Of a stretch of DNA of 64,000 bases, positions 20,723 to 37,449 are shown piece by piece. The DNA is taken from positions 2,237,805 through 2,301,804 of the forward strand of contig CP006772.1 in NCBI GenBank assembly GCA_000473305.1, read 5' to 3'. Both the position numbers and the translations under genes were made by a program. Every line of letters starts with the position of its first letter. Position 1 is the first letter of the stretch. The notes under the pieces were generated by a model that saw nothing but the letters and a program-made list of their open reading frames with translations, searched no databases and was not told where the DNA came from. The DNA comes from Bacteroidales bacterium CF (GTDB lineage: Bacteria; Bacteroidota; Bacteroidia; Bacteroidales; UBA932).

Positions 20723-20730
20723 AAATCCGC

Positions 20731-21783
20731 TTATTTAAGGGTAACTTTGGCTCCATCGTAAAGATTGATAAAACCGTTAATGACAATCTGGTCGCCTTCC
20801 GAAATGCCTTTCTGAATAATGACCTTGTCTTCCAGCCTTTCGGCAATTGTTATGTCCTGGAGAACAGCATTTCCGTTTTTAACAACATAAACCTGAGGTT
20901 GAATGGTAGTGCCAACCATCGCCGATGCAGGAATACTGATTTGGTTTTCGTTGCCTCCTGATGTTACTTTTACTTTTCCGAACATTCCTGATTTTATTTT
21001 TAAGTCGGGGGTATTTTGCAATTCAAGCTGTACCGGATAACTGTTACCCATATTGGCTTTGCTGCCCACCATGCTTACTTTCCCTTCGAATGTTAATTCG
21101 GGATAAACGTCAGCCGATATCTTGCAAACCTGTTGAAATGAGAACTGCGCCATTTTGTTTTCAGGTACATTTACAGTAAACTTCAGTTTTGAGATTTCGG
21201 TAAGTTGCAGCAGTGGCATACCGGGAGCGGCAAATGCTCCTACTTCGGTTAATTTTGCCGTTACAATACCATTAAACGGCGCACGAATAGTTGTTTTGCT
21301 GATTTGTTCTTCCAATGTTGCTTTTTGAACCTTAGCTGTTTTAAGTCCCAATTCTGCTTTTTCAAGCTGAATACCCTGTACGGCATCGGCAGCAGATAAA
21401 ATGGTAAAGCGTTTTACATCGGTTTCCAGTCCTTCGATTTGTATTTCAACAGTCTGCAATTGAAGTTTTAACAGCGCATTATCCAATTGAATCAGCTTTT
21501 CACCTTTTTTCACCGAACTGCCTAAATCAACCAGAACCTCGCTCACCTTTCCCTGTATATCGGCGCTTAGCTTCGTTTCTTTTTGCGGTTCGAAAGTGCC
21601 GGTATACGTGTAGGTATTTGCCGAAATTGCTGAATTAACCAGCATTGCCTGCACGCTAATTGGTTTTTCTTTGTCGTACTGATAAACCCTTTTCTCTGTA
21701 ATTTCCTTGTTGCTTTTCAGTTTAAAAACTGTAAATGCAATGAGTGCCAAAATGGCAACCGTATAACTAATTTTTTTCAACAT
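20731..21783 (-). CDS. efflux RND transporter periplasmic adaptor subunit (MFP/HlyD family)
   Basis: 350 aa with a signal anchor, coiled-coil hairpin and beta-barrel regions. Confidence 0.9.
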   Translation of the reverse strand: MLKKISYTVAILALIAFTVFKLKSNKEITEKRVYQYDKEKPISVQAMLVNSAISANTYTYTGTFEPQKETKLSADIQGKVSEVLVDLGSSVKKGEKLIQLDNALLKLQLQTVEIQIEGLETDVKRFTILSAADAVQGIQLEKAELGLKTAKVQKATLEEQISKTTIRAPFNGIVTAKLTEVGAFAAPGMPLLQLTEISKLKFTVNVPENKMAQFSFQQVCKISADVYPELTFEGKVSMVGSKANMGNSYPVQLELQNTPDLKIKSGMFGKVKVTSGGNENQISIPASAMVGTTIQPQVYVVKNGNAVLQDITIAERLEDKVIIQKGISEGDQIVINGFINLYDGAKVTLK

Positions 21784-21795
21784 GATGTTTCTGTT

Positions 21796-23151
21796 TTATT
21801 TAATTGATGAAATATTTCCGCTTAGTTTTTTTAATTCCAAATCGGCTTTCAGGAATTCGATGATGGCTGTTAAATGGCTGGTTTGTGCTTCACTAACCGC
21901 ATTGTCGGCCAGAAGAACATCGGTAAGCGTTGCTGTTCCTTCTTTCTGTTGCAACACCATTTCGTTGTAGACCGTGGTCGCCAGGTCGATTTGGTTTTGT
22001 GTATTGTCAATGGTTTGTTGGTTTACCCGTCGCAAGCGGGTTGCGTTTTCAATCAGCATTTGGTTTTGTTCTTTCGCCAAATCGAATTGTATCTGATTAT
22101 TCTGGATTTCCAGTTTTTTCTGATTGATTTTTCGTTGTGTAACTGTTCCGTTAAAAAGGGGAACTGAAAGTTGCAACCCTGCAAAAGCCGTTGGGTAAAA
22201 GTTCAGGAAGTCGTTCGGCTTTTCATCGTAACCAAATCCCGTTTGTCCATAGCTTCCAAAAATCGAAACCGTGGGTAGACGCGAAGCTTTTAATGTGCTT
22301 AACTCGCTGGAAAGAAGTTTGTTTTGAGCAACAACCAACTCCAAATCCACTGGCAATATTGTAGAATAGGTCTCCAAATCCTTGTTTTCGATTTTAGTGT
22401 CAATCTGAATGATTTGATTAAACGGAATCCCCATCGAAAACTTCAGCGCATTCATCACTTGTTCAATATTGATATTCAACAATTCAAGCTGAGTGATTAA
22501 TTGTTCCTTTTGCAATTCTACTTTCGAAACGTCACTCTTTTTTATCATTTGTTGTGCATGCAGCAACTTTAGGTTATCTAGTAGTTTTGCGGTATTTACC
22601 AGGTTACTGTCAACAAAAGCTTTTTGATGACTTAAAATCTGAGCGTTATAAAACAGGTTCGAAATTTCGAAATAAACCTGTTCTTCTGTTTTTTTGTATT
22701 GAAGGCTGTTTAGCTCCGAAGCAATTTTTGTCGCTTCAATAGCGCCATAAACCTGTGGATTATACAAAGGCATTGCGACTTGAAGGTTAGCACCTATATT
22801 GTGCGGCACACCCATTTGCACTTCCTTGTACATTCCTTCGGGGCCGCCAAAAGCTGATTGTGGCATTAGTTGGTAAGGCAACTCAGCAAAATATTTGTAG
22901 TCGGCATTCAAACTGATTTTTGGTATAAGATTAGCTTTTGCCTCACTGTGTTTTTCTGTGGCCAAATTCATATTGTTCCTGCTCATTTGCAGGTTTTTAT
23001 TGTGTACCTGAGCTGTGTCGATGCATTGTTGCAAAGTCCATGTTTGTGCATTACTGTTCAGCGACAAAAATATTCCTGATAAAATCAGGAACAATAGTTT
23101 CGATTTGTGAATGCTCACTAACTTGTGTGTCCAAATTTTTTTGACTTTCAT
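21796..23151 (-). CDS. TolC-family outer-membrane efflux protein
   Basis: 451 aa with a signal peptide and two OEP repeats. First gene of the tolC-MFP-RND operon. Confidence 0.85.
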   Translation of the reverse strand: MKVKKIWTHKLVSIHKSKLLFLILSGIFLSLNSNAQTWTLQQCIDTAQVHNKNLQMSRNNMNLATEKHSEAKANLIPKISLNADYKYFAELPYQLMPQSAFGGPEGMYKEVQMGVPHNIGANLQVAMPLYNPQVYGAIEATKIASELNSLQYKKTEEQVYFEISNLFYNAQILSHQKAFVDSNLVNTAKLLDNLKLLHAQQMIKKSDVSKVELQKEQLITQLELLNINIEQVMNALKFSMGIPFNQIIQIDTKIENKDLETYSTILPVDLELVVAQNKLLSSELSTLKASRLPTVSIFGSYGQTGFGYDEKPNDFLNFYPTAFAGLQLSVPLFNGTVTQRKINQKKLEIQNNQIQFDLAKEQNQMLIENATRLRRVNQQTIDNTQNQIDLATTVYNEMVLQQKEGTATLTDVLLADNAVSEAQTSHLTAIIEFLKADLELKKLSGNISSIK

Positions 23152-23157
23152 TTTTTA

Positions 23158-23733
23158 TTAATCTTTTGAAGTTTTTATTTTTTTCATTTCCAATATTACC
23201 TCATGAAAACGTTGTTCGTCTTTCATATAAGTTCTAAATCCAGCTAATATTTTATTTGCCAGAACCTTTGTTGAGACTGTTGTTTTAAAGTTATTTTCAC
23301 TTTTTCCTTTGTTAATTATTTCCGTCAAATAATACTCAGCCATCTCCCGAATCCGCAGTAATGAATTCCTGATGCTTTCATCCCTGTCTTTGAGTTTCTT
23401 ATCGAAAATAAGGTCGAGGTAATATGGTTTTTGCAGGAAAAGGAAATAAAGCTTTTTAAAGAGAATTTTCAGTTCATTCTCGGGAATTTCGCTAGATTGT
23501 TTAGTTCCTTTTAAAAAATCCACCATGTCACTTTCAAGGCTTAATAACAAAATCAGAAGTATGTCATCATCTTTTGATAACCGACCGTAAAGTTGGCTTT
23601 CTTTTATTTGAAGATCTGCCAGATTATGAATGGTAAGTTCATCTAAACCTGAATTCCTTATTATTCCGGCAGCTTTTTCAATTATTTCATTTTGTTGTGT
23701 TTTCATAATGACTTTTTGTAAGTGAATATCCAC
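23158..23733 (-). CDS. putative TetR-like regulator
   Basis: 191 aa with a weak N-terminal HTH (LDELTIHNLADLQIKESQLYGRL). Confidence 0.4.
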   Translation of the reverse strand: MDIHLQKVIMKTQQNEIIEKAAGIIRNSGLDELTIHNLADLQIKESQLYGRLSKDDDILLILLLSLESDMVDFLKGTKQSSEIPENELKILFKKLYFLFLQKPYYLDLIFDKKLKDRDESIRNSLLRIREMAEYYLTEIINKGKSENNFKTTVSTKVLANKILAGFRTYMKDEQRFHEVILEMKKIKTSKD

Positions 23734-23758
23734 TAACTAAATAATGCAAATTTTTTTC

Positions 23759-24097
23759 CTATAAAAGCTTCGACTGGGTGTTCGGTTTGGGTGCTTTCAC
23801 TACCAGAATTCGTGCAATATTCGTTGAATTGTTATACAGACAATGCACGATATCTTTGGGGCTATCAACCAAACTATCAACCGGAACTTCTGTTTTTTCC
23901 TTACCAATGAGAATTTCAGGAGTTCCTTCCAGCACATAGAAAAATACATCTACCGGAGTAATGTGCGGTTTCAATGCTTCACCGGGCTGCAGGGTAATAT
24001 GCATGGCCTGCGCGCTATCTTTATCATACAATTTTCGAACATCCACCTTGTGTGGTGTTTCTTCGGTTGTTGTTTCAATTACTTTTTTGATTTCCAT
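23759..24097 (-). CDS. cupin domain protein
   Basis: 112 aa with a cupin_2-like beta-barrel. Confidence 0.55.
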   Translation of the reverse strand: MEIKKVIETTTEETPHKVDVRKLYDKDSAQAMHITLQPGEALKPHITPVDVFFYVLEGTPEILIGKEKTEVPVDSLVDSPKDIVHCLYNNSTNIARILVVKAPKPNTQSKLL

Positions 24098-24107
24098 TTT
24101 TTGTTGA

Positions 24108-24695
24108 CTATTTTTTTACAAGAATTTTTACTGAATTTGAAAGTTCTTTTCCTTTGTCAGACAAGCTAAAAGCATAACCCGACATTTGCCATTGTTTTAC
24201 AAACAAGCGCAGAGTTCCCATAACTACGACAGCCAAATGTTCTGCTTCCACATCGGTTCTGAGTTCGCCATTTTCCTGTCCTGATTTAATTATGCTGGTT
24301 AATGTTATGAAGTTATTATCCATAATTTCAGAAACTTTTTTTACCAGAATAGCTTCATTCCGAAAAAGTTCTTCCGAAAAAATAACTGCCACGAGCGAGG
24401 GAGAGTTGGCAAATATTTTAAACTGATTTTGAAAAAGGTGATTTATTTTAGTGAGTGCATCTCCTTCTGCATTTAGTTCGGCAGTAAACAGGCGCTCAGT
24501 ATTTTCTTTGAAATAGTTTAAAATGGCCACTAAAATCTCAATCTTATTTTCGTAATGGCGGTAAATTGCCGATTCTGAAAATCCAATTCTTTTTGCCAGA
24601 TTTTTTATTGTTAGTCCCTGAATTCCGTTTTCGGCGATTAAAGCGAGAGAAACTTCAATTATTTCCTTTTGTCTATCTGATAATTCTGATGTCAT
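24108..24695 (-). CDS. TetR/AcrR family transcriptional regulator
   Basis: 195 aa with a TetR HTH (LTIKNLAKRIGFSESAIYRHYENK). Confidence 0.8.
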   Translation of the reverse strand: MTSELSDRQKEIIEVSLALIAENGIQGLTIKNLAKRIGFSESAIYRHYENKIEILVAILNYFKENTERLFTAELNAEGDALTKINHLFQNQFKIFANSPSLVAVIFSEELFRNEAILVKKVSEIMDNNFITLTSIIKSGQENGELRTDVEAEHLAVVVMGTLRLFVKQWQMSGYAFSLSDKGKELSNSVKILVKK

Positions 24696-24890
24696 ATCAA
24701 TTTCTTATGTTAGTGAATATTCACTTTGCAAATTTAAATCAAAATTATTGAACAATCCAAATAATTTTTGAGAATTCTATAACATCTTGTTTTTCTGTGC
24801 TTTAAATACTGTTTCTAAGTATTGTATGCAATATCATCCTTATTCGAAAAGTAACTTTATTGGGGTGACTAATTGTGGGGTGGCAGAATT

Positions 24891-24953
24891 GCACTCTTTG
24901 GCAAAGCTTTGGTTAATTCGCGTTGGCTTGTGGGGCTTTGGCAATGTGTGCAA
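24891..24953 (+). repeat. bracket motif copy M2 (5' side of the efflux cassette)
   Basis: GCACTCTTTGGCAAAGCTTTGGTTAATTCGCGTTGGCTTGTGGGGCTTTGGCAATGTGTGCAA. Confidence 0.6.
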
Positions 24954-25051
24954 TTTGGGTTGGTTTTCAATTCATGGCTCAATATTTAACAGTCGTATTG
25001 TCAAATAATATTGTCTCACTTAAGTTTAAGTTTTCTTTTTTTACACTTGGT

Positions 25052-25179
25052 GGTAACGGTTGCGTGTAGCAGCAGTAAGGGATTGCGGGCGACTTACCTG
25101 TCCACCACCACAGAAGTTTGAGCGGGGCGGAATGCTTCATTTACCACTGAAACCCTTATTGCTGCTACACTTTGTTACC
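25052..25179 (-). other. attC-like site (about 128 bp)
   Basis: GGTAACGG|TTGCGTGTAGCAGCAGTAAGGG...CCCTTATTGCTGCTACAC TTTGTTACC. Clear outer inverted repeats. Confidence 0.7.
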
Positions 25180-25323
25180 AACTGGCCTTCTTTCTTGTCA
25201 AGCGATATACCTTTTTGTTTATCAACTATTTCTATCATTTCGTTTTTGTCTGTCGGATTGTGTATCAGCAAAGTTTTATTTTTTAAGTGGGATATTTCTT
25301 GTTTTTTCGGGTGGGCAAAGCAA

Positions 25324-25382
25324 GCTCTTTTGCAAACTTTGGTTTGCGGGTTGGCTTTGAGCGGTTTGCAAATGTGCTTGCT
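25324..25382 (+). repeat. bracket motif copy M3 (3' side of the six-gene cassette)
   Basis: GCTCTTTTGCAAACTTTGGTTTGCGGGTTGGCTTTGAGCGGTTTGCAAATGTGCTTGC. Confidence 0.55.
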
Positions 25383-25399
25383 TTGCGTCCGGGTTCATA

Positions 25400-26374
25400 T
25401 TAGTTAAACTTTCCTGTGATTTGTGAAATATCAAATTTGCCGTCAATGTTTTGGATTTCGATTTTTCCATTCAGAATATCGAAGAAGAAATCGCGAATAC
25501 GGTCGAAGGTCAAAATAGCGGGCTTTCCGTCTTTTCCAGTACCCATATCGTAAGTTTTCAGCAGTTGTAAGCCGAGCGAGGCAGCTGTCAAAAGAAAATG
25601 ATTTTGAAACTTATCGGTATCCAACAAGTCGGCTGCCAACACTTTACCGATTACAGTGTAACTGCGCAACGTTTTCTGAATTTCCTCATTGGTGAGCGTA
25701 GTTTTTACCTCATCGGTAGTAATATTCATTTCAATTTTACCTGAATTTTGCGCCTGTGGAAGTCCTTTGTAGAGTGCGCCCAAGTCAGCCAAACTCAAAT
25801 TGTAAAGCCTTGCATCGGCGGTAGCAATCATCGGCTCAATTGAAAACGCACTCGGCAAAAGCAAGGAAATACTGCCTTCTACCCGCACCGACGGCGTGTT
25901 GAACGTGCCGACAAGGCTGTTTTTGAGGTCGATTTGCTGCGTAGCAAACACACCGCCAACCACTATACTGTTTTCCAACACGACATCATCTGCATAAATG
26001 CTGCCCGCCACAAAAGCATTGTAAAGCGCTACACTCTTGGCGTTTATATCGGAATGGAAAACGAGTTTGGCGTTTCCTGCCCGCGAAACAAGGCTGTTTG
26101 CCGAGCCAACGCTCTTTTTGAACGCAATATTGCCTTTTGCCTCGCTGTTGACATAAAGTTCCAATTGCGTGAAAACAGCACCTTGAATTTCGAGGTCGCC
26201 GTTTTGGATTTCTAACTTGTGGGCATAAACCGGTCCTTCAACTACCGCATTGCCCTGCACTGTAATAGTGCGATTGAGTTCCGCGGCCTTTTCGGGCAAA
26301 ATAGAGCCGCGCACCAGGTTGTCTTTCAATTGTATGTTGCTTTCGTTAAAACGAAGTTCTTTTAACTCTTTCAT
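25400..26374 (-). CDS. bactofilin-like (polymer-forming beta-helical) protein with a C-terminal extension
   Basis: 324 aa. Residues ~40-175 are repetitive hydrophobic/Gly beta-helix repeats (..GNAVVEGPVYAHKLEIQNGDLEIQGAVF..VVLENSIVVGGVFATQQIDLKNSLVGTF..). Confidence 0.5.
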   Translation of the reverse strand: MKELKELRFNESNIQLKDNLVRGSILPEKAAELNRTITVQGNAVVEGPVYAHKLEIQNGDLEIQGAVFTQLELYVNSEAKGNIAFKKSVGSANSLVSRAGNAKLVFHSDINAKSVALYNAFVAGSIYADDVVLENSIVVGGVFATQQIDLKNSLVGTFNTPSVRVEGSISLLLPSAFSIEPMIATADARLYNLSLADLGALYKGLPQAQNSGKIEMNITTDEVKTTLTNEEIQKTLRSYTVIGKVLAADLLDTDKFQNHFLLTAASLGLQLLKTYDMGTGKDGKPAILTFDRIRDFFFDILNGKIEIQNIDGKFDISQITGKFN

Positions 26375-26393
26375 TGTGATATTATTTTTATGA

Positions 26394-27428
26394 TTAAACT
26401 GATTTTATTGAGCTGAAATTTAGCATTTTAACAATATTTTCCCGCACACGATTTGTGTGTGTATCGCCTGTGGAATAACGATTGCTGACTTCCGCGTTGA
26501 AATAACGCCCGATTTTCTCGGCATTGTCTTTGGAAACGTTTCCCCAAGTTTTTGCCTGAAAATCAGAAATCATTTCGTTTGCCTGCATTTTTGGCAAAAA
26601 ATCGGCTTGATACAGATTTTTGTCAATCTGACTTTTTTCGTTTTGCGTTTCGATAAAGCAGACAGGCGAATACTGCACGGCTACAACGCTCTCGTTCAGA
26701 ACGGTTTGATTGATTGTGTCGTTCAAGCGTTTCTGTTTCACGAGAAAAGTATTTGCCTTGCCGATAGTGTCAAACGCGCGTTTTTTGGCAATAGAGGCAG
26801 AAAGTCGCACCTGTAAATCGCCGCTCTCCGCGCCAAAAACGGCCACAGTACTTGCCAAATCGCCTGTCAAGGTGCGTCCTGCATGCTTGTCGCTCTGATT
26901 TTTGAAGACGAAAGCAGGCTTGTCCAATTCGTAAATACGGTTGGAAAGTTCGTTGTCCAAGTCCTCAAAAATTTTCAGGTAACGGCTCGAAATACGCTGA
27001 TAGTCGCCTTGCATCTGCGTTTGTTTTTCCACACAACGTTTTGCCATTGAGTGCAGGTGTGCCAAATGGGAATCTAAACGGCTCGAAAGTTCTGCAATCT
27101 GCTGGCTGATTTCAGAGCGAATTGTTTTGAAAAAACCTTCTACAATGGTACTACCCACTTTCTTTGCGTTGCTGTCGATAGATACAATTTGTGCCGTTTC
27201 GGTAGCAACGACTGCACCAGTGAGAACATTTACAGAATTGTTACAATTCGCTACACTATTGTCGAAAGGAGTTGTTTCAACATCAATATTTACCTGTACA
27301 TCTTCGTAAGCCGTACCGCTGTATGGTACACTTCCGCTATATGGTTTTCCATCTACAGAACCAGAATAACTGACTCGACCCGAATAGTGAACTGCTATTT
27401 GTTTATGAAAATTTTGTCTATAACTCAT
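26394..27428 (-). CDS. hypothetical coiled-coil protein (paralog A)
   Basis: 344 aa. Shares a conserved central block with 27425..28351 (FFKTIRSEISQQIAEL..SSRYLKIFEDLDNELSNRIYELDKP). Confidence 0.6.
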   Translation of the reverse strand: MSYRQNFHKQIAVHYSGRVSYSGSVDGKPYSGSVPYSGTAYEDVQVNIDVETTPFDNSVANCNNSVNVLTGAVVATETAQIVSIDSNAKKVGSTIVEGFFKTIRSEISQQIAELSSRLDSHLAHLHSMAKRCVEKQTQMQGDYQRISSRYLKIFEDLDNELSNRIYELDKPAFVFKNQSDKHAGRTLTGDLASTVAVFGAESGDLQVRLSASIAKKRAFDTIGKANTFLVKQKRLNDTINQTVLNESVVAVQYSPVCFIETQNEKSQIDKNLYQADFLPKMQANEMISDFQAKTWGNVSKDNAEKIGRYFNAEVSNRYSTGDTHTNRVRENIVKMLNFSSIKSV

Positions 27429-28351
27429 AATTGTTCGTTTTTAAGGGTTTGAAAATTATTAGCCATAAACAGTTTGTTAGCCATATCTTTTACCCGCTGC
27501 GAACTGCCCGAATTAGAAAGATATTTGCTGAACTCGCTTTTTACCTCCTTGTCGATTTCTTTTGACGGTTGCCACTCAATATTTTCAATATTGGAATTAA
27601 CCGTGTTTTTAATGGTTGATTGAGTTTGTTTGCTCAACTGTGCATTATTTAATTGAATATCAATATTTTTGCTGTCGAATTTATCAAAATTACACTCTGA
27701 AATTACCACAGGAACGGACAGGGTAGAATTTTCAACATTGCCTTTTTCAAGCAAAATTCTGTCAGTCAATTTTTTCTGTTCCGACATATCGGCAAGAAAG
27801 TTTGTCATTGAGTTGATAACTCTCAAACCTCGAAATTTTACATTCGAGGCAATGATCTTCTGACTTGCCGCCAGCGATTCGAGTTGCGAAACAGGGACGG
27901 TTGCCGTCAGGTATTTTGTACGGTTAGATACCTTTTCCAATTCTTTAACTGCAAAATCGACAGTTGGTTTATCCAATTCAAAAATTCGCTGTTTCAGATT
28001 TTGATTCAATCCGTTGAAAAGTTTCAGATAACGAGAGGAAATCATATTATAGTCGCGTTCCATTCTGCCGCGTATTGCCAAAAGTTGCTTTTTTTGTGCG
28101 TTGAGCTGCATTAAATGCGAATCGACATCGCTTTGCAGTTTGGCTATTTTCTGCGAAATTTGAGAACGTATAAGCGTGTAAAAGCCTTTATTTACGTTGT
28201 CGCAAACGTGGTCGGCGGCTTTCTTTTCTGCCAAAACTACGGCAGTTTGCATTGCTACAACCGCAGTTGTAGTCCCCTTGATATGATTGGACACTGAATG
28301 AATTTCCTGTGCCATCGGGTTGGTATCTACTACGCAATCTATATATGCCAT
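27425..28351 (-). CDS. hypothetical coiled-coil protein (paralog B)
   Basis: 308 aa, paralogous to 26394..27428 (FYTLIRSQISQKIAKL..SSRYLKLFNGLNQNLKQRIFELDKP). Overlapping start and stop. Confidence 0.6.
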   Translation of the reverse strand: MAYIDCVVDTNPMAQEIHSVSNHIKGTTTAVVAMQTAVVLAEKKAADHVCDNVNKGFYTLIRSQISQKIAKLQSDVDSHLMQLNAQKKQLLAIRGRMERDYNMISSRYLKLFNGLNQNLKQRIFELDKPTVDFAVKELEKVSNRTKYLTATVPVSQLESLAASQKIIASNVKFRGLRVINSMTNFLADMSEQKKLTDRILLEKGNVENSTLSVPVVISECNFDKFDSKNIDIQLNNAQLSKQTQSTIKNTVNSNIENIEWQPSKEIDKEVKSEFSKYLSNSGSSQRVKDMANKLFMANNFQTLKNEQL

Positions 28352-28355
28352 AATC

Positions 28356-30614
28356 TTAAATTTTTATTTCGTTATCATTATCAAATTCGCCCTGATTTTC
28401 AAGAATATCGTCGATTGCCTGCTCGCGATCGAATTCGTCTGCATCGTATTCCAAACCGAGTTCGTCAAGAATTTGCTGTAAAGACTCATCGTCCAAGTCG
28501 TTCAACTCATCTTTGGAATATTGATATTCTTCGGTTTCGTCATCCTCTTCTTGTTCTTCGTCTTCAGAAACTTCTTCCTCTTCTTCGTTGTCGTCTTCAT
28601 CCTGTTCTTCGTCTTCAGAAAGTTCATCCTCTTGAATTTCGGAATCGTCTTCTGTAAGTTCTTCTTCGGAAATTACTGCCTGTTCTACAACAATTTCCTC
28701 ATCTGCTTGCTCGTCCTCCGCCTCTTCGTTCAGGAGATTCCGACCTTCGTCGGAATAACCGTCGAATGGAGTTTCTTCTTCGCGTTCTTTCAGGTTTTCC
28801 AACGCATTTTTGGCAATAATCGGCAAATTGAGTGCGATATGCTCAAAAGTAATGTCTTCTACATTGGGCGTAGGTGGCAATTCCGAAGATTTAGCAAACA
28901 GCGGATTAACCAAAGCCAAAGGCTTACGGCGGTCGTTGAGGTCACGTACTTCATCGGCGGCAACTGCCACTTCATTGGAATACCCATCGCGAAGTTTTGC
29001 ATCGTAATATTCGATATGTCCAAATTTATCGGCTTTCTGGTCAATATCTTCTTTGAGACGTTCCATATAATCTTCAAAATCCGATTGAGTCCGCTTAAAT
29101 TCGTTTGACTGCATTTCGAATGCAATTAATGTTTCGGCAGCATTATCAACCACATCAACAACGGTGCTGTCAAGGTTACCCTCCGACTGTACCATAGTAT
29201 CTTCGGTGCGTTGCAACGAAACCAAGGTATTATAGGCAGCCACATATTCCTGCAAACTTTTTCCCATATCTCGAATAATATCAGCGGCTTCGGCACGGTT
29301 GCGACCATAAAAATCTTCGCAGTTTTCGTGCCAACGATTCAGATACTCAATTTTTTGGTCTTTGATATGATTGTAAATTTTAAGGCGTTCAATGCGGTTT
29401 TCAGCCATAAGATTTTGAACAACAGGTGTAACGATTTCCTCGTAAATCTGGTGTACGCCAAAAGGCAAATTGGTTGTGCTGCCATCTTCCGCCGTCCACA
29501 TTCCCGAAACGAGATTATATTTTACCCGCGAACTCTGTTTGAGTTGGAAAGGCTCGTATCCCTGCACCGATTCGGTATAATCGAACTTCTCGTTGCGGAT
29601 ACGTTCGATTTCTTCGTGCTCCAAAAGCGGAGAATAGTGATTGTAAGGCGATTTGAGAATTTGATACAAAACTTTGTTCGATTCAAAAATTATTTTATCG
29701 GTAGAAGCTACCTTCAAGGCAGAAATTGCTTGTACAGAATTTGCCATTGTGATCATTAGCCCCTTCAAAACGTCCTCAAACTGTTGTGTTTTGTTCGACA
29801 ATGAATCTTTTAACCTATTAAGTTCCTGAAATTTATTTACACTACCCGCATATTTTTCCTTGTTGAAAACAGGAATAACCGGTGCGTTTTCAGGAATTTC
29901 CGTAGTCGCAAATTCATTTAGAAATTGTAGATATTCGCATTTATCGGCAACTAATGGTAACGATACCGAAGTGGTATCCAAGTCGTCCATACAGTAAGAA
30001 ATGGTTCGCAGAGAGCGTTCCAATTTGCCGAAATAATCGTGCTGGTTGATTTCTTGAATAGAAGTAGAATACTCATCTGTTTCAATGGTTTCCGTGTCTT
30101 GCGAGGTTTCCACAATCGGAGCTTCCGACGACAAATTTTCAAGGTCAGCGATTGTTTCAATGAGCAAATCGTTTTGCCGCGAAAGTTGCAATGTAATTTC
30201 CGACTCATTAACCTTGCCTGTGTAATCGACAATGAAACTTTTGTCTTCGTACTTGATTTGGTCGGCAATGGGAACATAAGCCACGCCCAACTTGCTCACT
30301 TTGTAGTCGCGGAAAATCTCGCTGTGCTGCTTTTTAAATTCGGCAATGCGCGTGTCTTTGTCCGCAATCTGTTTCCCCAACCCGCTCTTTTTTATGAAAT
30401 ACACAAAGAACAGAATGATTGTGAGAAACCAAACCCACAACTTGGAAATTTCTGTCTGCAACGCCGTTTTTTCTTCTTCGAGAACGGCAATTTGCTTTTC
30501 AATTCGTTCCTCTTCGGCAACGATTTTTTCAGCCGCCTGGCTGTAATAGTTGAACAATATCTTCGCCTGGTCTTGATAGACATTGTTCGATTCTGGAAAA
30601 ATTTTACCTGTCAT
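28356..30614 (-). CDS. large hypothetical protein with an N-terminal TM helix and a poly-acidic C-terminal tail
   Basis: 752 aa with one TM near residue 60 and a coiled-coil N-terminal region. The last ~130 aa are about 50% D/E. Confidence 0.6.
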   Translation of the reverse strand: MTGKIFPESNNVYQDQAKILFNYYSQAAEKIVAEEERIEKQIAVLEEEKTALQTEISKLWVWFLTIILFFVYFIKKSGLGKQIADKDTRIAEFKKQHSEIFRDYKVSKLGVAYVPIADQIKYEDKSFIVDYTGKVNESEITLQLSRQNDLLIETIADLENLSSEAPIVETSQDTETIETDEYSTSIQEINQHDYFGKLERSLRTISYCMDDLDTTSVSLPLVADKCEYLQFLNEFATTEIPENAPVIPVFNKEKYAGSVNKFQELNRLKDSLSNKTQQFEDVLKGLMITMANSVQAISALKVASTDKIIFESNKVLYQILKSPYNHYSPLLEHEEIERIRNEKFDYTESVQGYEPFQLKQSSRVKYNLVSGMWTAEDGSTTNLPFGVHQIYEEIVTPVVQNLMAENRIERLKIYNHIKDQKIEYLNRWHENCEDFYGRNRAEAADIIRDMGKSLQEYVAAYNTLVSLQRTEDTMVQSEGNLDSTVVDVVDNAAETLIAFEMQSNEFKRTQSDFEDYMERLKEDIDQKADKFGHIEYYDAKLRDGYSNEVAVAADEVRDLNDRRKPLALVNPLFAKSSELPPTPNVEDITFEHIALNLPIIAKNALENLKEREEETPFDGYSDEGRNLLNEEAEDEQADEEIVVEQAVISEEELTEDDSEIQEDELSEDEEQDEDDNEEEEEVSEDEEQEEDDETEEYQYSKDELNDLDDESLQQILDELGLEYDADEFDREQAIDDILENQGEFDNDNEIKI

Positions 30615-30633
30615 GATTTTTATGATTTTAGAT

Positions 30634-31344
30634 TTAGTTTGAATAAATACTCTTTCTGATTTGATAAATTCTTTCTGCTTTTTTAAGATTGCTACCGATT
30701 GCCTCCTCGTTCATCGAATAATTGGAAATTGCAAACGCAATATCGTTGATAACACGAATAAATTGCTGTTCCAAACCATGCGCCTCTGCATTTTCGGTTG
30801 GTGAAATAAACCGCAAGCTGTCTTCAAGTGTATTTATTTTGCGAATAAAATATTCGGGCAAGTTCGGCAAATCGTTCATTTTGTCTTTCAAATCGCGTAT
30901 TGCCGTTTTCATTTCATTAATACCGTTACGGTTAAATGTTTCCTGCTGATACACTTCCTGAACTTTGTCGCCCGAATGAAGTGAAGCAACAAGCCCCAAA
31001 ATCAAGAAGAAAAGCAAAACGCAATGAATAATTATTTGCAGGGCAAACGACCATTCACAAGCAAGATTTCCAACAAGCATTACGGCAATAGCCGCAATAG
31101 CGTAAAGCCATGTAAAAAGCCAACGCACGCCAAGCGAGCCAACTTTTTTACCCTGTTTGTCGTTCAAATTAATCCACGGAACAAGAATGTCGAGAAAAAA
31201 CAGTCCGTAAATGACAGACGAAACCACGATATTCAGCACGAGAACATCAGGTGCCAGGCTGCCGCGAAACAGTATAAATGCAGCAATAATAATTGCCTCT
31301 CCGCCAAGCAGCACAATAAATGATACTATTTTCTTTGTGTCCAT
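30634..31344 (-). CDS. hypothetical membrane protein (4 TM) with a cytoplasmic C-terminal domain
   Basis: 236 aa with four hydrophobic helices followed by a soluble domain. Confidence 0.55.
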   Translation of the reverse strand: MDTKKIVSFIVLLGGEAIIIAAFILFRGSLAPDVLVLNIVVSSVIYGLFFLDILVPWINLNDKQGKKVGSLGVRWLFTWLYAIAAIAVMLVGNLACEWSFALQIIIHCVLLFFLILGLVASLHSGDKVQEVYQQETFNRNGINEMKTAIRDLKDKMNDLPNLPEYFIRKINTLEDSLRFISPTENAEAHGLEQQFIRVINDIAFAISNYSMNEEAIGSNLKKAERIYQIRKSIYSN

Positions 31345-31367
31345 AATTTGTAATTTTTAATTCGTAA

Positions 31368-32633
31368 TTATCTCTTGTTTCCGCATTTTGGGCAAAATTT
31401 CACACTCGGAGGTAATGTTGTTCCGCAACGGCTGCAACTGTCACCGGAAGAAACCTGTTTTCCGCAGTTTCCGCAGAAAGTTGCGCCCGCCATCATTGGC
31501 GCGTTACAATGCAGACAGTTTCCGCCACCCGATTGCAACGGTGTTCCGCAACTTACGCAACGTTTGGCGTTTTTATCATTGTCCGTTCCGCATTTGGGGC
31601 AAGGGTTGTATTCATCGCCACAATGAGGACAAAAACGGGTTGTACTGGGGAACTTTTTGGCGCAGTTGGAACAATACACCATTTTAACCTGTTGTTGCGG
31701 CTCTTGATTAAAATTGCCGCCTTGCTGATTATTCCCGCCAAAATTAGGCTGATTGAATTGCGGGTTCATCATTCCACTACCAACAGCGCCGCCGCCGCCC
31801 ATTCCTCCCATCATATTCATTGCCATCAAGCCGCCTATCAGTCCGCCGTTGCCGTTGCCGAAACCATCTACGGCATTGTTGGCGGTATTGAACATCTGTT
31901 CCTGCTGCCAAGTGTGCCCTGTAATTGACATCGACGCTTGCGTTGCAATGGCTTCCGCTACCTTTCTGCCTTCTTCTGTGGATTTATCAATATCAATCGT
32001 TGTAATATTAAATTGCAACAATTCCAAACCCAAGTTGCCCCAAAATGGATTTAGAACACCTTTTAAATATTCAGATAATTCGTCTAAATAAGCAGATAAA
32101 TACTTAAAACCGACATGGTGTTTAATCACATATTGCGCAATTTGCGACTTGGTTTTTGTTGAAAATTCACCGAAAAACTGATTTGTCAAATCGTCCTGCG
32201 TAAATTCTGTTTTTGTTCCGACAGATTTTATCAGGAATTTTTCCGCATCATTCACTTTCAACCCGTAGCGACCGCCTGCGACAAGCGGCAGTTGCGTGTT
32301 GTAATCGGGGTCGTGAATCGGCATTTTGCTTACCGCCCAATCAATGCTGAACGTTTGAATTTTGTTTACAAACCACACCTCCGCCGTAAACGGATTTTTC
32401 CCACCGAAAGGGATTCCGAACAGCGATCGCAAAATCGGCAAGTTTTCGGTGTTTAAGGTGTGTTTCCCCGGACCGAATTTACCTACAACCTGCCCTTTTG
32501 AGAACAATACCGCTTCTTGTGATTCCTGCACAACGAGTTGCGTGTAGGTACTCAAATTAGTTTCGGGGAAACGCCAAGCGTAAATGGTTTTAGTCCCCTG
32601 CGGCGACCATCTGACTAAATCAATTATTGCCAT
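31368..32633 (-). CDS. SPFH/Band-7 family protein with a Gly/Met-rich linker and C-terminal tandem zinc ribbons (COG4260/YdjI-like)
   Basis: 421 aa. The N-terminus MAIIDLVRW..GTKTIYAWRFP is typical of the Band_7_1 SPFH family. The C-terminus carries repeated CxxC...CxxC ribbons (CSNCAKKF..CPHCG, CPKCG..CVSCG, CLHCN..CGNCG, CSRCG..CPKCG). Confidence 0.7.
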   Translation of the reverse strand: MAIIDLVRWSPQGTKTIYAWRFPETNLSTYTQLVVQESQEAVLFSKGQVVGKFGPGKHTLNTENLPILRSLFGIPFGGKNPFTAEVWFVNKIQTFSIDWAVSKMPIHDPDYNTQLPLVAGGRYGLKVNDAEKFLIKSVGTKTEFTQDDLTNQFFGEFSTKTKSQIAQYVIKHHVGFKYLSAYLDELSEYLKGVLNPFWGNLGLELLQFNITTIDIDKSTEEGRKVAEAIATQASMSITGHTWQQEQMFNTANNAVDGFGNGNGGLIGGLMAMNMMGGMGGGGAVGSGMMNPQFNQPNFGGNNQQGGNFNQEPQQQVKMVYCSNCAKKFPSTTRFCPHCGDEYNPCPKCGTDNDKNAKRCVSCGTPLQSGGGNCLHCNAPMMAGATFCGNCGKQVSSGDSCSRCGTTLPPSVKFCPKCGNKR

Positions 32634-32694
32634 AACTTTTTGATTTTAAAGTTTTTATTTGTAAATTTATTCTTTTCGTGCAAAGGGAAAAATG

Positions 32695-32750
32695 GCTCTT
32701 TGACTTTTGCGAAACGTTGACTTGTGTGTTGGGCAAAAGGTAATGTGCCA
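32695..32750 (+). repeat. bracket motif copy M4 (degenerate; 5' side of the six-gene cassette)
   Basis: GCTCTTTGACTTTTGCGAAACGTTGACTTGTGTGTTGGGCAAAAGGTAATGTGCC. Recognisable but diverged. Confidence 0.4.
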
Positions 32751-32914
32751 TTTTTGTGGTGGATTCTAAAAACAAAAAATGCAGGTCGGCAAAAAATAAA
32801 ACTTTATCGGGTCGGCTGGTGTGGTCGGCAGTCATTCCGATTGGTCTTTCTTTTCTGTATTCGTATGTCGTCTTGTCAATTTTCATGTCGCTGTCTTTTT
32901 TCCTTAGGCTTGTT

Positions 32915-33292
32915 GGTAACGGTTTCGGGTGTAGTTCGGCCACCCTGTCCTCTTGCAAACCCATTGCCTCCGGTGGCTGAACTATACCTGGTGTTATAAC
33001 CAGCTTCGATTTCAGTACAAGATCAAATCGCCTTTGGTTCACGGTTTTGCCTTATAAAGATAGAAACTTTATTTATTTAGTTGAACACAGATTATCCTAA
33101 AAATCAACGAACAAACACAATATTTACACTAAGGGTTAAATCAGATACGAATTGAATCGCAAAACCTGTGACAAAGGCGCGGTAATATTATTGAAAGTAG
33201 AAAAGAGACTTCGAAACTTAAATACACCCTCTTAAAGCAAAAATCAGATAATCGGCACACATTTCAGCCTTTACAACTTTTCTTTAGTTGGT
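32915..33292 (-). repeat. non-coding cassette type 1 (attC-A 32915-33000 + NC1 about 292 bp)
   Basis: attC-A is GGTAACGG|TTTCGGGTGTAGTTCGGCCACC...GGTGGCTGAACTATACC TGGTGTTATAAC. The NC1 body has no ORF beyond spurious ones. One of 8 near-identical copies. Confidence 0.7.
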
Positions 33293-33581
33293 TATAACGT
33301 TTCGGCGGCTGAGCCCGTTTTAATGGGCGTAGACGCCTGTTATGGGTCGGTTGCGTTATTGGTTGGTTGTTTTATTTATTTTGCATTAACTTCTATATCA
33401 TTAACTTTCTCTAAAAATACTCGTCAACTCGGCTGCCTTTCTTCTTATGCAAATGACCGTGTATATTCCGGAGCATCGTGACCCCCATTCCGTTTTCATC
33501 TTGACCCCCCATTCCGGACGATCGTGACCCCTTAGTTAACCTGTTTTGATTAAGTTTGAGTAACACTCAAATCGATCAGAC

Positions 33582-35135
33582 ATGGCAGGAAAAACTTTGG
33601 AAATGAATACAGTTCAACAGGTAGGGTTAATGTATCGGCAAGGAGTCGGAATCAAGGCCATTGCAAGGAATTTATCATTAAGCAAGAATACCGTAAAGAA
33701 GTACCTTCGTGAGATGGAGCTAATCAACTCCACACAAGAAGAAGGAGATTGCCGTACAGATATTGATCTCGCATCAAATGAAGAGCACCCGGATGAATGT
33801 AAGAGCCGTTTAGATATACTGCAGGAATATTTTCCTGATTACGGTAACTTATTGAAACAGCCAGGCATGACACTTCAAGTGCTGTGGCAGAGATACAAAG
33901 AGATTCATAAAGACGGATATGAATACTCTCAGTTCTGTTATCATTATCAAAAATATAATGTCACCCGTCAGGCAGTGATGCACTTTGAGCATGAGTATGG
34001 AGACCGTTTGTACCTGGATTTTGCCGGCAAAAAAGTCTCTTATGTCGAACAAGGAACAGGAGAGATCATTGATTGTGAGTTTTTTGTTGCCGTACAGGGT
34101 GGTAGTCAGGAGACATATGCCCAAGCCTGCCTAAGCCAACAGAAAGCTGATTTTATCGAGTGTGTTCAGGATGCCTTGTTTTATTACGGAGGGGTTCCCA
34201 AGGTATTGATCCCGGATAATTTGAAGAGTGCTGTAACCAAAGCCAGCAGATATGACCCTACCCTAAACGAGGACTTCCTTTCCATGGCCAACCATTACCA
34301 ATGTACGGTCATGCCAGCCAGAAGCCTCAAACCACGCGACAAGAGCCTTGTGGAACGGCATGTTTCCATTCTCTATACCCGGGTATTCACAAAGCTCCAT
34401 GGGCGTACATTCTTCTCTCTTCACGAGTTGAATGAGGCTATCGGTAAATACGTGGAAGAGCATAACAATATGCTTTTCCAGGGCAAGGAGTATAGCCGAA
34501 GGATACTGTTCGACACGTATGAAAAGGAGGCCCTTTCACCACTGCCGGCCACCCGTTTTGAGCTTAAAGATTTTGTATTTGCGACAGTCATGAAAAACTG
34601 TCACGTCCAATACCGTGTTGACAAGCACTATTATAGTGTCCCTTATCGCTATATCGGAGAAAAAGTCAAGGTTGCCGTGGGTGCATCAACAGTGGAAATC
34701 TACCTCAAAAACAACCGCATTGCGCTTCACGCCAGAGATCGCAGACCCTATAAGTACACCAGCGTAAAAGACCACCTTCCTTCCGGGCATCAATACGTAA
34801 GTGAGTGGAATCCTGATAAGTTTATACAGTGGGGAGAAAGGATAGATCCATCAGTTAGTGAATATATACGCAAGATACTGGATCGTCCGGCCTATCCGGA
34901 GACTCTTTACAGAGGCTGTTCGGGAATACTTCAATTTGAGAAGAAAGCAGGGAAGTCACGTCTTGTTGCGGCCTGTAAACTTGGCTTGCATCTTCAATCA
35001 TACAGCTATACGTTCATTCAGGGAGTCTTATCCCGTAATACCGAATCCATAGAGATAGAGGAAGCCGAAACAACCATCGAAGTGGAACATGAAAATATAC
35101 GGGGAAATGCTTACTATCAATCATTATTTAACTAA
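33582..35135 (+). CDS. istA: IS21-family transposase IstA
   Basis: 517 aa with an HTH and a DDE core. Homologous to but clearly divergent from 8881..10440. Confidence 0.9.
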   Translation: MAGKTLEMNTVQQVGLMYRQGVGIKAIARNLSLSKNTVKKYLREMELINSTQEEGDCRTDIDLASNEEHPDECKSRLDILQEYFPDYGNLLKQPGMTLQVLWQRYKEIHKDGYEYSQFCYHYQKYNVTRQAVMHFEHEYGDRLYLDFAGKKVSYVEQGTGEIIDCEFFVAVQGGSQETYAQACLSQQKADFIECVQDALFYYGGVPKVLIPDNLKSAVTKASRYDPTLNEDFLSMANHYQCTVMPARSLKPRDKSLVERHVSILYTRVFTKLHGRTFFSLHELNEAIGKYVEEHNNMLFQGKEYSRRILFDTYEKEALSPLPATRFELKDFVFATVMKNCHVQYRVDKHYYSVPYRYIGEKVKVAVGASTVEIYLKNNRIALHARDRRPYKYTSVKDHLPSGHQYVSEWNPDKFIQWGERIDPSVSEYIRKILDRPAYPETLYRGCSGILQFEKKAGKSRLVAACKLGLHLQSYSYTFIQGVLSRNTESIEIEEAETTIEVEHENIRGNAYYQSLFN

Positions 35136-35147
35136 ACATCACCGCCT

Positions 35148-35870
35148 ATGAATCAGAACACATTGGAACAACTGCATGCCATGAAACTATTTGGCATGGC
35201 CAACTCTTTCAAGGCTCTCATCGAGAGTCATTCCCTGGAACAATATACCCATGACCAGATGGTTGCAGCCTTAGTGCAGGCAGAGTGGGAAGGACGGGAA
35301 CACAAGAAGATAGCACACAACATAAGTCAGGCAAAGTTCCGTTACACTGCCTCCATCGAAGAGATAGATTACACCTATCCCCGAAATCTGGACAAGAATC
35401 AGATGCTCCGTTTCACAGACTGCTCATACATAAAGAATGCTGAAAACATACTGGTGTCGGGAGCTACCGGGGTTGGGAAGAGCTATATAATATCAGCCCT
35501 TGGATATCAGGCCTGTATAATGGGATATAAAGTTGGTTATTACAATCTGCAAAAACTATTGACAGCACTTCGTATAGCAAAAGCGGACGGGTCTTATCTA
35601 AAAACACTCAGTAGGATAGAAAAACAGGACCTTCTTATCTTAGACGATTATGGGCTGCAGCCTCTCGATAATAATGCCTGTATAAATCTTTTGGAGCTTA
35701 TCGAGGACAGATATGGAAGACGTGCAACTATCATGTCCTCACAGCTTCCCTTTGACAAGTGGTATGACATCTGCACGGCTAAGACAATCGCCGATGCAAT
35801 CTTTGACAGACTAATAAACGGTTCTCACAAAATCCAATTGAAAGGGGAATCAATGAGAAAAAAAAGATAA
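35148..35870 (+). CDS. istB: IS21-family helper ATPase IstB
   Basis: 240 aa with Walker A GATGVGKSYI. Confidence 0.9.
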   Translation: MNQNTLEQLHAMKLFGMANSFKALIESHSLEQYTHDQMVAALVQAEWEGREHKKIAHNISQAKFRYTASIEEIDYTYPRNLDKNQMLRFTDCSYIKNAENILVSGATGVGKSYIISALGYQACIMGYKVGYYNLQKLLTALRIAKADGSYLKTLSRIEKQDLLILDDYGLQPLDNNACINLLELIEDRYGRRATIMSSQLPFDKWYDICTAKTIADAIFDRLINGSHKIQLKGESMRKKR

Positions 35871-36071
35871 CTTTGTTTGACATGTTTTGATCAATCAAAA
35901 CATGGTTGACCTTCGGGTTGCCCTTCGGAGTACGGAGGGGTCACAATCATCCCGGAATGGGGGTCAACATCGCCGGAATAAACAGACCGGTACTTTTTGC
36001 TCTTAGACAGATACTTTATATTCTAATCTTCTCTCTTTTTCTTCTGCCGTATTGGTTCCCGCAACTGACCC

Positions 36072-36320
36072 ATTAACGTTTCGGCGGCTGAGCCCGTTTT
36101 AATGGGCGTAGACGCCTGTTATGGGTCGGTTGCGTTATTGGTTGGTTGTTTTATTTATTTTGCATTAACTTCTATATCATTAACTCTCTCTAAAAATACT
36201 CGTCAACTCGGCTGCCTTTCTTCTTATGCAAATGACCGGTACTTTTTGCTCTTAGACAGATACTTTATATTCTAATCTTCTCTCTTTTTCTTCTGCCGTA
36301 TTGGTTCCCGCAACTGACCC
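36072..36320 (-). repeat. non-coding cassette type 2 (attC-B 36072-36134 + NC2 185 bp), intact copy
   Basis: Near-identical to the copies at 46151, 58579 and 60561. Confidence 0.7.
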
Positions 36321-36546: not shown

Positions 36547-37449
36547 ATGAGAAAAAAGTCAGGATCAACCATTATCGAGAGGGCTCTGGATTGTGTGCCG
36601 GGATTCGACCGTGTCTTCCAGAAGCTCCAGCAGCAGGTGGTTTTGCGGGGTCAAAGCAAAAGCACCCTCAACAACTACATCCGCCGTGTAGCTGCAATAT
36701 CACTACATTTCGGGAGATTGCCGGAATTAATCGCAGATGAGGAGATCAACGAGTATCTAACTGCCCTGGCCCTGTCTGCAAAATCACCATCCAGAAGTAA
36801 TTTTAAACATTCCGTTTATGGGCTACGCTATTATTATAGGCTGCTTGGTCAGAACAAACGGGCGATCTCTCTTCCCTCCCTAAAGAAGGACGCCAGGTTG
36901 CCTGTCATATTTAATCGTGCGGAACTAAAGGAATTATTCAAGGCACCCTCACTGCTAAAACACCGCATAGTATTGACCCTGATCTATTCTGCCGGACTAC
37001 GCGGCCAGGAGGTCATTAATCTAAAACTTGCCGATATAGACTTTGAACGCAAGACCATACATATCCGACAAAGCAAGTATAAAAAGGACCGTATTGTCCC
37101 TCTTTCCGGATATATGTCTGATGGGTTGAAAAAGTATATTGCAGCAGAGAATCCTGTTCTATGGCTGTTCAACGGAAAAGAACCGGATGGTCGCTACAGT
37201 GTCCGGGGACTCTCGTGGGTAATGAGGGAGACGCTAAAAAAGACCTCAATCAAAAAGGATGTCAACCTCCATTCACTCAGGCACAGCTATGCAACGCACC
37301 TCCTCGAAGACGGGCTGAACATCGTCACCCTAAAGGAGCTCCTGGGCCATGCCGAGATCACCACCACGATGATCTACCTTCATGTGGCACAATGCCCGCT
37401 TATAAAGCCCCACAGCCCGCTGGACACACTGTATGGCGACAGGAAATGA
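36547..37449 (+). CDS. tyrosine recombinase (phage-integrase family), IS91-associated
   Basis: 300 aa with a C-terminal catalytic region (HSLRHSYATHLLEDGLNIVTLKELLGHAEITTTMIYLHV). Its stop overlaps the start (ATGA) of the IS91-family transposase. Lacks the extra IntI-specific insertion, so it is not an integron integrase. Confidence 0.8.
   Translation: MRKKSGSTIIERALDCVPGFDRVFQKLQQQVVLRGQSKSTLNNYIRRVAAISLHFGRLPELIADEEINEYLTALALSAKSPSRSNFKHSVYGLRYYYRLLGQNKRAISLPSLKKDARLPVIFNRAELKELFKAPSLLKHRIVLTLIYSAGLRGQEVINLKLADIDFERKTIHIRQSKYKKDRIVPLSGYMSDGLKKYIAAENPVLWLFNGKEPDGRYSVRGLSWVMRETLKKTSIKKDVNLHSLRHSYATHLLEDGLNIVTLKELLGHAEITTTMIYLHVAQCPLIKPHSPLDTLYGDRK

Follow-up and report, generated by a model that had tools for sequence, protein, structure and literature searches.

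The 64,000-nucleotide stretch of the Bacteroidales bacterium CF genome analysed here (contig CP006772.1, positions 2,237,805 to 2,301,804; referred to in its full length as the window) carries six co-directional open reading frames (ORFs) on its minus strand, which we designate A to F in coding-strand order (Table 1). An initial annotation, made from the letters alone, had described them over positions 25324-32750 as a membrane-associated module containing a bactofilin-like protein, two paralogous coiled-coil proteins, two membrane proteins and an SPFH protein with zinc ribbons. As a module this span stands, and the actual unit is slightly larger (the whole cassette in Table 1). We scanned 185,579 species genomes (one per species) with a close set of D-family sequences as query and obtained 183 pattern-confirmed loci, 80 of which were examined together with nine loci fetched earlier. 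The order ABCDEF was kept in 71 of the 71 loci long enough to hold the module, the others being almost all cut by contig ends. Because of this constant order the six ORFs listed initially are not chance ORFs, and A to F form a real, self-contained operon. The genes are tightly packed, as had been reported, with intergenic gaps from A to F of 23, 19, 4, -4 and 19 nt. An overlap of start and stop codons, which had also been reported, exists at the D/E junction alone, where the start codon of E lies over the stop codon of D (ATGA).

Judged by sequence comparison, A is the only one of the six proteins that belongs to a known family above threshold. NCBIfam gave no meaningful match for any of A to F, PADLOC-DB 2.0 gave no match at E<=0.1 and Pfam gave nothing beyond A, in agreement with the earlier proposal that the module is undescribed. 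Neither an NTPase nor a recognizable enzyme is encoded among the six genes. Hydropathy marks B and C as membrane proteins, and A, D, E and F have no hydrophobic segment resembling a transmembrane (TM) helix.

The proteins of the operon

Protein A matched the Pfam family Band_7_1 (PF13421) with 119.1 bits at a cut-off of 24 (E=2.8e-34), followed by the double zinc ribbon family DZR (5.5e-26) and Zn_Ribbon_1, and its eight CxxC motifs correspond to four zinc ribbons. These matches support the initial assignment of A to the SPFH proteins of Band_7_1/COG4260 (YdjI) type with C-terminal zinc ribbons, Band_7_1 being presumably also the subfamily of Bacillus subtilis YdjI/SamI. When a profile of A was compared with solved structures in the PDB, zinc ribbons were the only matches; no solved SPFH structure was matched by sequence because the Band_7_1 subfamily is too diverged. 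The combination of a Band-7 domain with C-terminal zinc ribbons has been described previously (PMC11237479).

For the two membrane proteins, hydropathy and composition agree with the initial description of a protein with four TM segments and of a larger one with a TM segment and an acidic tail. The four hydrophobic segments of B lie inside residues 3-126. B has no relative in Pfam, NCBIfam or the PDB, where its matches are at chance level (E>=0.3), and it is probably a membrane anchor. C has one TM segment by hydropathy (residues 55-79), preceded by an N-terminal helix and followed by the motif KKSGLGK; by the positive-inside rule, hydropathy and charge together indicate that most of C is cytoplasmic. 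A helical region of ~540 aa is strongly conserved, the invariant positions up to residue ~600 numbering in the hundreds. It precedes a variable acidic tail (~620-750), and the protein, which contains 175 Asp and Glu residues in total, ends in a conserved helical motif of ~40 aa. The AlphaFold2 (AF2) model of C, calculated from a shallow alignment (>=64% identity), has a predicted local distance difference test (pLDDT) value of 50.6 and is confident only for residues ~700-740.

Neither Pfam nor the PDB sequences contain a relative of C, and its terminal helix gave sub-threshold matches to Rho_N in 3 of 58 members and to SAP in one of the 58. A search with C returned ~2,700 relatives, the named sources of which are nearly all metagenome-assembled genomes (MAGs) of Bacteroidota. 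None of them bears a functional name except for one 'TerB-C domain-containing' entry; this UniRef label was not reproduced in the 58 members and is probably an artefact of the acidic low-complexity tail. Homology between C and D was likewise considered and rejected (hhalign probability ~1%).

D and E are paralogues, as had been proposed for the 344-aa and 308-aa proteins, with 38% identity over 194 aa in BLASTP (E=8e-33). The AF2 model of D (pLDDT 87.9) predicts a helix of 138 residues (11-148), a second helix of 46 residues (156-201) and a small alpha/beta C-terminal domain. E differs by an N-terminal extension of ~45 aa that carries four YSG repeats. The D family comprises 558 clusters at 50% identity, and its profile had no sequence match in the PDB.

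The initial annotation had suggested that the two paralogues could be PspA/ESCRT-III- or TelA-like, and every test that we ran on this identity was negative. None of 94 D-family members matched the Pfam families PspA_IM30 or Snf7 at E<=0.01, and neither did the E protein of the window at E<=0.1; TelA (PF05816) was matched by none of the 94 members nor by D and E of the window. Structure comparison did not recognize in D or E the ESCRT-III fold, i.e., an alpha1-alpha2 hairpin with the helices that follow it. A comparison of the D profile with Escherichia coli PspA (sequence entered by hand) using hhalign gave a probability of only 0.25%, which leaves the PspA/ESCRT-III proposal unsupported.

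F gave 22.8 bits against the Pfam family Bactofilin (PF04519), below the cut-off of 27.9. The weak match recurs in 40 of 61 F-family members, with a best value of 4.5e-5 and none at the Pfam threshold, so that support for the bactofilin-like character first ascribed to F is weak. The N-terminal half of F is probably beta-helical and bactofilin-like. It is joined to an additional conserved C-terminal domain of ~150 aa without a family match, and a profile of F had no sequence match in the PDB.

An integron-type cassette and its array

In a blastn comparison, four unrelated contexts (L001-L004) were 97.5-99.9% identical to the window over just the segment from 25038/25055 to 32920/32934. On the coding strand, the similarity starts at G↓TTACCAACAAGCC and stops at ...CTACAC(G/T)CAACCG↓ (the arrow marks the junction), and the six bases past the 3' junction vary by context, being TTACCA, TTGGCG or TTGGCA. 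Exact G↓TT junctions of this kind are what recombination within the R' box of an attC site (G↓TTRRRY) should produce. The attC site at the 3' end of the cassette has the architecture R''(GGTAAC), L'', a conserved centre, L' and R'(G↓TTACC), and the segment 25045-25190 folds as single-stranded DNA with -25.7 kcal/mol (z=-3.1). In an alignment of eight sites from the window and the other loci, 13 of the 17 pairs in the L''/L' stem show compensatory changes, and the outermost pair alone is unpaired, in two of the eight sites.

A covariance model (R1) built from this alignment scored the attC of the cassette at 149.6 bits and detected 13 minus-strand sites, and none on the plus strand, in the window. 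The weak one among them is the attC of the preceding ORF-less cassette, the R' box of which provides the G of the upstream junction and which is repeated seven times in the window. Because the junctions are exact and covariance-model attC sites are present, the module can be delimited as one cassette of 7,863 bp. The earlier claim that it is integron cargo bracketed by attC sites is thus borne out by the junctions in four contexts, the covarying attC and the co-oriented array.

Integron cassettes typically measure ~0.5-1.5 kb, contain one or two ORFs and are often promoterless. With 7,863 bp, six ORFs and a 286-nt leader the present cassette departs from this pattern in both size and content. 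A constraint towards small cassettes has been stressed (bioRxiv 10.1101/2024.07.02.601686), and one study reports that a cassette whose attC sites are separated by 4 kb was entirely missing from a cassette-capture library, from which its authors concluded that it had lost its mobility (bioRxiv 10.64898/2026.03.17.712381). The present cassette, with six genes on 7.9 kb and an occurrence in several arrays, lies well outside the published size norm.

The conserved non-coding 5' leader of the cassette has a mean nucleotide identity of 82% across diverged cassettes, which is above the expectation from the identities of the encoded proteins, and likely holds a promoter or operator belonging to the operon itself. 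An imperfect palindrome of 64 nt (32690-32753), invariant in sequence, is located in it ~55 nt upstream of the A start codon. A hairpin is predicted for the palindrome, which could act as such or as an operator; since no pair varies, covariation speaks neither for nor against the hairpin. A sigma-54 promoter in the leader (TGGCAC...TTGC) was considered and dropped owing to wrong spacing.

The same attC class is found 3' of diverged modules (D ~64% identical) in four further loci (L036, L039, L041 and L045). About 75 other loci do not have this attC class and lie mostly beside housekeeping genes. As most copies are thus located outside attC arrays, cassette carriage is a property of some lineages and not of the whole family.

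In the window, the array extends over 13253-63692 on the minus strand and comprises at least 13 co-oriented attC-like sites of the 138-nt class, in addition to attC classes of 105 nt and 54 nt. A canonical IntI with the IntI-specific insert was found neither in the window nor beside the module in Labilibaculum filiforme. The sole tyrosine recombinase of the window (36547-37449) scored 156 bits on TIGR02249, for which the cut-off is 265, and matched this model in two stretches that skip the IntI insert, i.e., it is Xer/IntI-like. It is followed by an IS91-family Y2 transposase (region 36547-41188, plus strand) that is split by an IS66 element (38013-39590). In L003, such a pair of recombinase and IS91 transposase flanks the module on both sides (256-2351 and 11285-13380) and adjoins attC sites; the L003 recombinase is 45% identical to that of the window.

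In Labilibaculum filiforme 59.16B, a 361-aa recombinase (L094, 6530-7615) lies directly upstream of the module in the same orientation, with ~85 nt between its stop codon and the G↓TTAC start of the cassette. Archaeal XerA is the closest match of this tyrosine recombinase, whose alignment to IntI4 is again confined to two stretches; its identity to the IS91-linked recombinase of L003 is 33%. In layout, the locus is similar to an integron that has a non-canonical integrase in the same orientation. The IS91-linked Xer/IntI-like recombinase may service these arrays, and the window looks like either an integrase-less attC cluster (CALIN-like) or an array served by a non-canonical recombinase.

Other parts of the array were also inspected. 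One cassette of 9.6 kb (15482-25056) encodes TetR, a cupin, a second TetR, TolC, a membrane fusion protein, a resistance-nodulation-division (RND) pump and a PLA1-like gene product. Another of 8.6 kb (46393-54985) carries a 227-aa ORF, which its position suggests to be a response regulator, as well as genes for a PorY-type kinase, a beta-propeller protein, an outer-membrane protein and an outer-membrane efflux protein. Giant cassettes thus seem to be a property of this platform that goes beyond the six-gene module. A further cassette (41938-46392) contains a UvrD-like helicase (44335-45726) and a 611-aa protein without a family match (42498-44333), which could be a defence-type pair.

Two ORF-less cassettes, one of ~190 nt ending in a 54-nt attC and one of ~440 nt ending in a 105-nt attC, recur as a pair seven times, each time just upstream of another cassette, and may be promoter or regulatory cassettes. 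The ORF-less cassette upstream of the module is interrupted by an insertion sequence (IS) of the IS21 family (33478-36073; ORFs of 517 aa and 240 aa, presumably IstA and IstB), which is missing from the otherwise identical contig L005. A second IS21-like element is located at 8881-11202. A repeat of ~50 nt with TTTGCAAA-type inverted repeats occurs at or near several cassette ends, one copy lying between the F stop codon and the attC; it is possibly the 'bracket motif' said in the initial annotation to flank the module. Finally, an Rfam DUF805b RNA motif was detected at 61484-61518 (minus strand, 42.1 bits, above the gathering score).

Table 1. Positions of the six genes, the cassette and associated elements in the window
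Feature	Position	Strand	Description
Gene A	31368-32633	minus	421 aa; cytosolic SPFH protein, Gly/Met/Asn/Gln-rich linker, four zinc ribbons
Gene B	30634-31344	minus	236 aa; 4-TM protein, soluble C-terminal tail of ~110 aa
Gene C	28356-30614	minus	752 aa; single TM segment, poly-acidic tail
Gene D	27425-28351	minus	308 aa; long-helix protein, paralogue of E
Gene E	26394-27428	minus	344 aa; paralogue of D with N-terminal extension
Gene F	25400-26374	minus	324 aa; weakly bactofilin-like
Whole cassette	25057-32919	minus	7,863 bp; starts TTACCAACAAGCC, ends ...CAACCG
Cassette 5' leader	32634-32919	minus	~286 nt, non-coding, conserved
Cassette's own attC	25045-25182 (within cassette: 25057-25182)	minus	138-nt class
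attC of preceding ORF-less cassette	32908-33012	minus	105-nt class; weak covariance-model match, 31 bits
attC-like sites (covariance model)	13253, 15482, 25045, 32908 (weak), 36313, 41938, 46393, 54986, 56166, 58821, 60810, 61952, 63553	minus	
ORF-less cassette pair	32917-33477 + 36074-36312; also 45776, 55797, 57826, 58204, 60187, 61583		Each just upstream of another cassette
TTTGCAAA-type repeat	25322-25369, 24896-24948, 15787-15839, 46697-46752, 54501-54553		

Distribution and genomic neighbours

The hosts of the module are mostly Bacteroidota of the orders Bacteroidales, Flavobacteriales, Chitinophagales, Cytophagales and Marinilabiliales, joined by Ignavibacteriota-type MAGs; the hosts also include one MAG each of Melioribacteraceae and Chloroherpeton. 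Cultured carriers include Labilibaculum filiforme 59.16B (Marinilabiliales), Capnocytophaga sputigena NCTC11653 (Flavobacteriales) and Dysgonomonas termitidis. The module is limited to a small minority of Bacteroidota genomes; the index of the assembly collection lists a C protein identical to that of the window in 144 blocks. Median identities to the window over 61 loci are 75% for F, 70% for C, 67% for A, 63% for D, 52% for E and 42% for B, a pattern that indicates strong purifying selection on the module, with F the most and B the least conserved protein. Those parts of the proteins that are probably structural are very highly conserved.

In other genomes the 105 nearest neighbours are mixed and mostly housekeeping genes, among them ribosomal protein S7, FeoB, glycoside hydrolases and RNase R. 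As these neighbours are heterogeneous and unrelated, the module appears to be self-sufficient, without a fixed partner gene. Defence-looking genes make up ~5-8 of the 105 as a raw count. The copies in L001, L002 and L004 adjoin type I restriction-modification, GmrSD, AAA_13, caspase and DUF4062 genes. Dysgonomonas termitidis has two copies of the module, one of which is broken by an IS110 element, and the copy in L007 adjoins BrxL, a PLD-SNF2 helicase and an MmeI-type methylase.

Directly upstream of this L007 copy, beside BrxL, lies a cluster (960-7928) that encodes a Ser/Thr kinase, three small zinc-ribbon proteins, an FGE-sulfatase-like protein and a PP2C phosphatase, and that may be another uncharacterized defence or signalling module.

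In one lineage (L090-L093), AAA+ genes (AAA_lid_6) occur in cassettes on both sides of the module, e.g., at 5960-8008 and 15527-16414 of L090. We rejected them as partners of the module, since they form separate cassettes and are absent from the other loci. The 682-aa and 117-aa gene calls in these four loci are read-through across the attC and the leader, which simulates an eight-gene operon.

Searches among viral sequences were negative as well. The PHROGs collection gave no meaningful match for A to F, relatives of the module were found neither in the viral contigs of IMG/VR nor in the plasmids of PLSDB, and Foldseek against the viral structures of BFVD returned nothing below E=0.076.

Proposed function and comparison with known systems

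In B. subtilis, two membrane proteins, SamG and SamH, recruit the TM-less cytosolic protein SamI (YdjI), which stabilizes PspA foci (PMC8581546; bioRxiv 10.64898/2026.02.06.704340). By analogy, the reading of the module that we tentatively prefer is that of a mobile scaffold which protects against envelope stress from the cytoplasmic side of the membrane. The YdjI/SamI-type SPFH scaffold would be the centre around which the six products come together on the cytoplasmic face of the inner membrane, with B and/or C docking A at the membrane as SamG and SamH do with SamI. D and E would pair into an elongated helical heterodimer that takes the position of PspA in Bacillus without being homologous to it, and F would form a beta-helical polymer. 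Together with the cytoplasmic domain and acidic tail of C, these components may form a lattice beneath the cytoplasmic membrane, by which damage to this membrane is sensed or buffered, and the damage answered could include that caused by phages. As no NTPase or recognizable enzyme is encoded, the action would be structural, i.e., assembly, sequestration or stabilization.

The invariant gene order, the strong conservation, the Band_7_1 domain and zinc ribbons of A and the confident, very-long-helix model of D support this scaffold reading, as do the published behaviour of SamI, the cytoplasmic placement of most of C, the evidence for cassette status, which extends to diverged variants, and the varied, unrelated neighbours. 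Several observations weigh against it. A single recognizable family is represented among the six proteins, and the rest of the model is analogy. D and E have no detectable sequence similarity to PspA/ESCRT-III, the Bactofilin match of F stays below the Pfam threshold in every member, and the predicted structure of C is unreliable. Moreover, nothing connects the module to an envelope-stress regulator, and some near-identical copies lie among restriction-modification, GmrSD, BREX and AAA_13 genes, which points toward defence.

The main rival, which appears to us appreciably less probable, is anti-phage defence, probably abortive infection, through a membrane complex that detects infection. Such a complex would sense membrane lesions, or a phage protein caught by the acidic tail of C or the zinc ribbons of A, and B and C would then collapse the membrane or block phage assembly. 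Carriage on an integron cassette is consistent with this idea, as the cassettes of sedentary integrons are rich in defence genes (bioRxiv 10.1101/2024.07.02.601686; bioRxiv 10.1101/2024.07.02.601719), and so are the defence-type neighbours of the L001, L002, L004 and L007 copies, the duplication in Dysgonomonas termitidis with one IS110-interrupted copy, and the patchy occurrence (183 confirmed loci among 185,579 species genomes). However, A to F have no match in PADLOC and contain no nuclease, protease, NADase or other familiar effector domain; all but ~5-8 of the 105 nearest neighbours are housekeeping genes; and the conservation of C and F is unusually high for a system engaged in an arms race. 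The other giant cassettes of the array, furthermore, carry efflux and two-component genes and none for defence. The scaffold and defence readings are mutually compatible.

The high sequence conservation, the bactofilin-like and SPFH components and the finding that most species genomes hold the module among housekeeping genes without this attC class would also fit a vertically inherited housekeeping organizer of cytoskeleton or envelope (for shape, division or membrane domains) that was incidentally captured by an integron. We consider this improbable in view of the small minority of Bacteroidota genomes that have the module, its duplication and IS disruption in one genome, its non-conserved neighbours and the 97.5-99.9% identical copies in unrelated contexts, with the identical C protein in 144 assembly-collection blocks. 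Even less credible, and largely refuted, is a remnant of a phage or other mobile element encoding structural or superinfection-exclusion proteins. The long helical and beta-helical proteins superficially resemble tail components, and Band_7_1 proteins are often annotated as 'virion core protein'-like; on the other hand, no phage genes are found nearby and the comparisons with PHROGs, IMG/VR, plasmids and viral structures were all negative.

A more far-reaching version, which we regard as doubtful, is that the module represents a new membrane-guarding machine, PspA/ESCRT-III- or abortive-infection-like, made from new folds (C, D/E and B), an SPFH ring and a bactofilin-like polymer, and spread on an integron-like platform with 8-10 kb cassettes and an Xer-like recombinase without the IntI insert. 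If this were true, both the accepted size limit of integron cassettes and the accepted definition of their integrase would be broken.

Should the scaffold reading hold, the module would be a widespread membrane-scaffold system of Bacteroidota from gut, oral, wastewater and marine habitats, with four protein families of unknown fold, and many of the carrier bacteria may lack classical Psp systems. The existence of cultured carrier strains makes these ideas directly testable. In addition, the module shows that integron-type recombination can move a six-gene operon of 7.9 kb, and the same array holds cassettes of 8.6 kb and 9.6 kb. Because the literature treats cassette size as tightly limited, these sizes bear on the shuffling of whole operons in Bacteroidota, and also on what cassette-mining screens may miss.

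Among known systems, the module shares most with pspA-ydjGHI (pspA-samGHI) of B. subtilis. Both have a TM-less, YdjI-type Band-7 protein with C-terminal zinc ribbons, encoded in one operon with integral membrane and long-helix proteins and with no ATPase, and both form a complex at the cytoplasmic face of the membrane, which for the present module is a prediction. In contrast to the Bacillus system, no PspA/ESCRT-III homologue is present, and B to F gave no Pfam match to PspA or to TPM (YdjH) at E<=0.1; the NTF2-like domain of YdjG was not the object of a dedicated search. The partners are instead families without known relatives (B, C and D/E) and a bactofilin-like protein, and the module is found in Bacteroidota instead of Firmicutes and is cassette-mobile. 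As in flotillin/NfeD and HflK/C-FtsH, the SPFH scaffold would be expected by analogy to oligomerize on the membrane and organize its partners. Unlike in those systems, A has neither a TM segment nor a flotillin-type coiled coil and is accompanied by neither an NfeD nor an FtsH partner. F is reminiscent of bactofilins (PF04519) in the recurrent weak matches to beta-helix repeats in its N-terminal half, and differs from them in that these matches are sub-threshold throughout and in its extra C-terminal domain of ~150 aa.

The cassette itself resembles published integron cassettes (bioRxiv 10.1101/2024.07.02.601686; bioRxiv 10.64898/2026.03.17.712381) in its single 3' attC with R''/L''/L'/R' boxes and G↓TT crossover, in its co-oriented array and in the occurrence of the same cassette in different arrays. 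It departs from them in its size of 7.86 kb with six genes and in an attC centre that is conserved in sequence. Unlike in canonical integrons, IntI is absent, and the nearby recombinases are Xer/IntI-like proteins without the insert that are linked to an IS91 transposase. The novelty lies in a membrane system that is centred on an SPFH protein of YdjI type, has entirely new partners and is carried on an exceptionally large integron-type cassette.

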